Translations under genes and position numbers: made by a program
NCBI RefSeq assembly: GCF_013167455.1
Contig: NZ_CP038331.1
DNA: 6,675 bases
Strand: one strand, 5' to 3'
Source of the DNA: Escherichia coli O157:H7
Lineage (GTDB): Bacteria > Pseudomonadota > Gammaproteobacteria > Enterobacterales > Enterobacteriaceae
The notes under the pieces: model-generated
Told to the model about the DNA's origin: nothing
Seen by the model: only the letters and a program-made list of their open reading frames with translations
Databases searched by the model: none
Shown here: positions 6,036-6,179 of the stretch, in pieces
How positions within the stretch are numbered: the first letter of the stretch is position 1
Layout: each line of letters starts with the position of its first letter

Positions 6036-6053
6036 GCTGAATAGCTATGCATA
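6036..6053 (+). promoter_or_regulatory. Candidate ArgR box of the cer-like site
   Basis: GCTGAATAGCTATGCATA matches the ARG box consensus TNTGAATWWWWATTCANW at about 12 of 16 defined positions. It is centred about 106 bp upstream of the XerC arm, the spacing expected for cer-type accessory sequences. Confidence 0.45.
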
Positions 6054-6150
6054 CGGTTAAAATTTATCAGGTGCGATCGCGGCAGCTTTTCGGGTGGTTT
6101 GTTGCCATTTTTACCTGTCAGCAGCCGTGATCGCGCTGAACGCATTTCAG

Positions 6151-6179
6151 CGGTGCGTACAATAAGGGGTTATGTTAAA
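6151..6179 (+). other. cer-like XerC/XerD recombination core site (plasmid multimer resolution)
   Basis: GGTGCGTACAA (XerC arm, identical to the ColE1 cer arm as recalled), TAAGGGG (7-bp central region), TTATGTTAAAT (XerD arm, identical to the dif XerD arm as recalled). Confidence 0.75.

Follow-up and report, generated by a model that had tools for sequence, protein, structure and literature searches.

The locus raises the question of whether a Xer recombination site that joins a cer-type XerC arm to a dif-type XerD arm across a 7-bp central region is a working variant of a plasmid multimer resolution site or a copy damaged by the loss of 1 bp. A sequence-only reading of the window (the whole stretch of DNA analysed, 6675 bp) had allowed for both. 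The window is a complete pColD157-type, ColE1-like colicin D plasmid of 6675 bp, as follows from its matches in PLSDB, the colicin D annotation, and RNAI. The 241 bases around the candidate site match 823 PLSDB plasmids; 17 of 6.67 kb, carried by E. coli O157:H7, O111, and O103, match at 100%. One matching plasmid is annotated with colicin D, immunity, and lysis genes as well as MobC, MbeB, and MbeD; the colicin D gene starts at position 25, past the circular junction. RNAI lies at 2654-2759 on the - strand (Rfam match), and RNAII is therefore co-directional with the order ArgR box > XerC > XerD. Such co-orientation with RNAII has been reported for all cer-like sites (PMC2831885), and it is found here for a + strand site on a small multicopy ColE1-type replicon. 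A core search of the 6675 bp found no second Xer core, and no recombinase genes are annotated in near-identical plasmid records; the Xer site is the sole candidate resolution function on this high-copy pColD157-type plasmid. At 6622-6654, upstream of the colicin D gene, lies a long palindrome, ACTGTACATAAAACCAGTGGTTTTATGTACAGT, which gives an ARG-box-like match at 4 mismatches and resembles the two overlapping LexA (SOS) boxes that colicin promoters typically carry.

The core of the site, GGTGCGTACAA-TAAGGGG-TTATGTTAAAT, occupies 6152-6180 on the + strand. The corresponding 29-mer, GGTGCGTACAATAAGGGGTTATGTTAAAT, occurs a single time in the window, with 0 occurrences expected in shuffled sequences even at 3 mismatches. 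The site and its surroundings comprise the following features:

5962-6151, + strand: accessory sequence on the XerC side (~190 bp, left boundary approximate), where ArgR and PepA presumably bind
6036-6053, + strand: candidate ARG box GCTGAATAGCTATGCATA (ArgR binding site), placed by position and homology with cer
6152-6162, + strand: XerC-binding arm GGTGCGTACAA, the same as the ColE1 cer and ColK ckr arms read from their records
6163-6169, + strand: central region TAAGGGG of 7 bp, the place of strand exchange by comparison with cer and ckr
6170-6180, + strand: XerD-binding arm TTATGTTAAAT, the same as the XerD arm of E. coli dif (PMC11724359 Sup file 1)
6165-6187, no strand assigned: inverted repeat AGGGGTTAT/ATAACCCTT, with a 9-bp stem and a 5-nt loop as RNA (RNA folding)

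Both arms are thus exactly of the types that the sequence-only reading had named, and the 7-bp spacer that it described is real, against 8 bp in cer and 6 bp in dif. The site it placed at 6036-6179 is present, although its end was set 1 bp short, the true end being 6180. Compared with TTAAGGGA of ckr and cer, the central region has lost one T and carries G in place of A as its last base, and the XerD arm TTATGTTAAAT differs from the cer and ckr arm TTATGGTAAAT at a single base, 6175. The arrangement is that of the cer family, with 11-bp XerC and XerD arms, an inner palindrome ..AA / TTAT.., and a central region (6163-6169) whose 7 bp fall within the family range of 6-8 bp. The likeness to dif ends at the identical XerD arm: dif has a 6-bp central region, another XerC arm, no accessory sequence, and activation by FtsK. 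Sites of the dif type are 28 bp long, lack accessory sequences, and typically belong to large replicons, whereas the site considered here is 29 bp long, has an accessory sequence, and lies on a 6.7-kb plasmid.

Plasmid Xer sites are defined by accessory sequences of ~180 bp (PMC2699498). A candidate region of about this length is present on the XerC side, with a putative ARG box ~100 bp from the core, and in the published record of an identical plasmid, NC_013368, the accessory sequence is scored 'ArgR' (PMC11724359 Sup file 2). The XerC arm starts ~107 bp from the centre of the box, whose TGAAT begins 114 bp before that arm, compared with 113 bp in ColE1 cer. The box has 4 mismatches to the 18-bp consensus WNTGAATWWWWATTCANW, likewise the number in the ColE1 cer box. 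The window contains no match at 3 or fewer mismatches and 10 positions at 4 or fewer, where ~5 are expected, and with about twice the chance number at that threshold we rejected the box as an independent motif match. It is position and homology that mark it as a probable ArgR site, the bare motif not being significant; the earlier proposal of an ARG box ~106 bp upstream therefore stands as a cer-homologous position and fails as a motif call. Taken together, the arms, the 7-bp spacer, and the box at the expected distance support the identification as a cer-like Xer site. Homology with cer further predicts that the Pcer promoter and the beginning of rcd lie in the accessory region. Inspection by eye showed an imperfect 14-bp inverted repeat within the accessory sequence, GCGATCGCGGCAGC at 6073-6086 and GCAGCCGTGATCGC at 6121-6134, with a conserved GGTGGTTTGTTGCCATTTTTACC block lying between the two repeat arms.

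Alignment with known sites, proposed in the sequence-only reading as a check, bears out the conservation of the accessory region, which is 100% identical to that of ColK ckr and, over its last 150 bp, 82% identical to that of ColE1 cer. Positions 5960-6162 are 100% identical in pColK-K235, pVR50C, and pO104:H7_S1. The closest counterpart is ckr of ColK (pColK-K235, NC_006881), which likewise follows mbeD in the same orientation and whose accessory sequence, ARG box, and XerC arm are all 100% identical. It differs in its 8-bp central region (TTAAGGGA against TAAGGGG), in its XerD arm (TTATGGTAAAT against TTATGTTAAAT), in lacking the AA that follows the XerD arm in the pColD157-type site, and in having exc2 on the right, where the pColD157-type plasmid has an 81-aa ORF from 6189. 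ColE1 cer shares the XerC arm, the layout, and 82% identity over the last 150 bp of the accessory sequence, whereas it has an 8-bp central region and a GG-type XerD arm, and the perfect half of its ARG box is the mirror-image half. Across 2508-6188, the window and ColK are 93% identical, with zero differences over 5803-6161 (359 bp). The differences near the site are four events within 21 bp, 6162-6182: one T is gone from the beginning of the central region, 6169 is changed A>G and 6175 G>T, and AA has been added at 6181-6182. At the local background rate, such clustering has a Poisson P of ~8e-6. It may stem from selection acting on the core, from a short patch of conversion, or from the overlapping hairpin.

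ColK homology stops at 6188, beyond which exc2 is replaced by the unrelated 81-aa ORF. This right flank is restricted to the pColD157 family, and remoter matches cover the 81-aa ORF only. The colicin-K-type plasmid pO104:H7_S1 (NZ_KM085451) has the same 29-bp core and left side as the pColD157-type site, differing in its ColK-type right flank with exc2 kept and in the absence of the AA insertion. The core variant is consequently not tied to the colicin D backbone. A search for a donor plasmid with the same right half behind another accessory sequence found none. An origin of the site as a one-crossover Xer hybrid is not supported, because the flank is confined to the pColD157 family and the core of pO104:H7_S1 has ColK-like DNA on both sides. 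The 81-aa ORF itself (6191-6436, - strand), which occupies the place of exc2, encodes an arginine- and glutamate-rich hypothetical protein (WP_000820629.1) with no match to a Pfam or NCBIfam family. An E. coli plasmid of 119 kb has ~90% identical copies of this ORF alone, and distant copies occur on many Klebsiella plasmids of 10-12 kb.

The unusualness that the sequence-only reading had implied does not hold up: textbook Xer sites have central regions of 6-8 bp (PMC11724359, PMC2699498), those of 7 bp form a common natural class, and a published catalogue already contains this exact site. Among the previously characterised xrs listed by Fournes et al. 2025 (PMC11724359) is that of NTP16, whose central region has 7 bp (TGAGACG), a sequence that we confirmed in the NTP16 record. 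The NTP16 site resembles the pColD157-type site in its 7-bp central region, its ArgR-type accessory sequence, and its small ColE1-type plasmid, and differs in having its own XerC arm (GGTGCGCGTAA), central TGAGACG, GG-type XerD arm, and accessory sequence. Among the 185 unique xrs of that survey, 27 are 29 bp long, 6 of them with a dif-type XerD arm. The exact 29-mer GGTGCGTACAATAAGGGGTTATGTTAAAT is present in its xrs list, and its entry for NC_013368 (6673 bp) gives a xrs at 2515 in orientation 1 with an accessory sequence of ArgR type (PMC11724359 Sup file 2). Through the PLSDB match, window position 6152 maps to position 2515 of NC_013368, and the pColD157-type Xer site is hence already known and listed in a published survey.

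A scan of one genome per species for the pattern GGTGCGTACAA-N6-8-TTATGKTAAAT returned 33 matches in 32 DNA stretches. Their spacers measure 8 bp in 23 matches (12 types) and 7 bp in 10 (5 types), with none of 6 bp. The dif-type XerD arm accompanies the GGTGCGTACAA XerC arm in 16 of the 33, so that the pairing of a dif-type XerD arm with a cer-type XerC arm is common. Intermediate cores also occur: the GT arm is combined with TTAAGGGG, and the GG arm with either TAAGGGG or TAAGGGA. The TAAGGGR 7-bp cores adjoin accessory sequences whose identity to that of the window is 100%, 87%, 81%, or 71%, and the form shorter by one T thus persists in several lineages. The core of the pColD157-type site is one of many natural core variants. 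The scan also placed cer-type cores on short contigs labelled Cutibacterium, Streptomyces, Bacillus, Clostridium, Bradyrhizobium, and others, and a 6778-bp contig of Acinetobacter idrijaensis carries the exact pColD157-type site with its flank; these occurrences in non-enterobacterial assemblies look like contamination with enterobacterial plasmid or vector DNA.

Of 5,426 complete E. coli genomes, 98, of several serotypes, carry the exact 41-mer around the core on plasmids; it also appears in 32 PLSDB records, and no variant of it was seen. This invariance is weak evidence of constraint, since the whole plasmid family is at least 99% identical. The 98 complete-genome records are nearly all monomers of ~6.7 kb, and the prevalence shows a stably maintained plasmid. 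One record, pC5105 (NZ_CP127305.1, 13349 bp), is a head-to-tail dimer of the 6675-bp plasmid with halves 99.94% identical (3 mismatches and 1 gap), and could be either a real unresolved dimer or a long-read assembly artefact.

We consider it very probable, on the strength of these comparisons, that the site is the multimer resolution site of the pColD157-type plasmid, a member of the cer/ckr family that would depend on ArgR and PepA and be initiated by XerC. In a plasmid dimer, two directly repeated sites would be paired by ArgR, bound at the ARG box (6036-6053), and PepA on the ~190-bp accessory sequence, and the resulting interwrapped synapse would limit recombination to sites in one molecule. 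Host XerC and XerD would bind the 29-bp core at 6152-6180, and XerC would open the reaction by exchanging one pair of strands at the left edge of the central region, forming a Holliday junction whose subsequent resolution would yield plasmid monomers. For cer and mwr, exchange is XerC-first, the Xer reaction halts at the Holliday junction, and the cell finishes it (PMC2699498); the activity of the pColD157-type site, its dependence on ArgR and PepA, and the completion of its Holliday junction are predicted by analogy with such sites. The mwr site has a 6-bp spacer, yet it needs ArgR and PepA and halts at the Holliday junction (PMC2699498), and spacer length alone accordingly does not decide the pathway. 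Accessory-dependent recombination may occur at xrs of 28, 29, or 30 bp, and FtsK-dependence is known only at 28 bp (PMC11724359). The 7-bp spacer and the consensus XerD arm probably only tune XerCD binding.

A rival that is compatible with the main explanation, although we regard it as unlikely, is that a second, overlapping function has shaped the cluster of changes, with the hairpin at 6165-6187 acting either as the 3' stem-loop of an Rcd-like transcript or as a terminator that keeps transcription of the leftward 81-aa ORF from running into the site. The inverted repeat reaches from the last part of the central region across the XerD arm to 7 bp into the right flank, and the four changes within 21 bp at 6162-6182, after 359 bp free of differences, speak for such a function. 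As + strand RNA the hairpin folds at -11.1 kcal/mol (z = -2.5), and its equivalents at -11.0 kcal/mol in ColK and -7.2 in ColE1; the ColK differences shift the hairpin register with the stem kept, so that stability is as in ColK despite the shift. Its shape is flagged as terminator-like on the - strand, and rcd within cer is transcribed in the direction ArgR box > XerC > XerD (PMC2831885), which is that of the + strand here. Against this, the - strand fold is no better than shuffled sequences (z = -0.9), and such a hairpin is missing at cer-like sites with other right flanks, so that we rejected it as a general cer-like feature. An Rcd system would comprise a Pcer promoter (15-bp spacer) and a ~70-nt Rcd transcript inside the site. 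Up to the XerC arm, the region concerned does not differ from ColK; a scan of 5800-6675 found no sigma-70 promoters, and the Rfam search at the site, in a database holding no Rcd model, gave no match but chance microRNA matches.

It is quite improbable that all four changes at 6162-6182 are co-adapted, with the 7-bp spacer and consensus XerD arm altering the pathway, for example toward a psi-like second exchange by XerD, and the AA restoring the overlapping hairpin as part of an Rcd-like RNA or a terminator. If true, the co-adapted set would represent a natural Xer core tuned under two overlapping constraints.

The alternative of a crippled remnant, in which the deletion misphases XerC and XerD, dimers are not resolved, and the plasmid persists via colicin selection or mobilisation, appears very unlikely to us. 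The spacer is truly a 1-bp deletion relative to ColK ckr, and pC5105 is a dimeric record. Nevertheless, a 7-bp spacer is common among natural sites, the characterised one of NTP16 being an example, both arms are perfect, and TAAGGGA/TAAGGGG cores persist beside accessory sequences only 71-87% identical. The site is, moreover, the sole candidate resolution function of a high-copy plasmid present in 98 complete genomes with nearly all records monomeric. Each side of the choice between a functional variant and a 1-bp deletion therefore proves partly true: the deletion is there relative to ckr, and the site, fixed in a widespread family of plasmids, shows every sequence mark that a functional one would have. 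We give least credence to an accessory-independent or dif-like core that binds XerCD strongly, dispenses with ArgR and PepA or is driven by FtsK, and could make multimers; the XerD arm is that of dif, the spacer is nearer 6 bp than that of cer, and shorter spacers and stronger arms reportedly lessen accessory-factor dependence (work attributed to Blakely and Sherratt), but the complete ckr-identical accessory region is kept and mwr, with its 6-bp spacer, still needs ArgR and PepA.

For the preferred reading as a cer/ckr-type multimer resolution site, the significance beyond annotation is small: it marks the likely place of dimer resolution on a common STEC-associated colicin D plasmid, and its 7-bp spacer should not be taken for damage. 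A modest specialist interest, for plasmid evolution and the tuning of Xer cores, lies in the confinement of the differences from ColK ckr to the crossover region and in the presence of one core on two different backbones.
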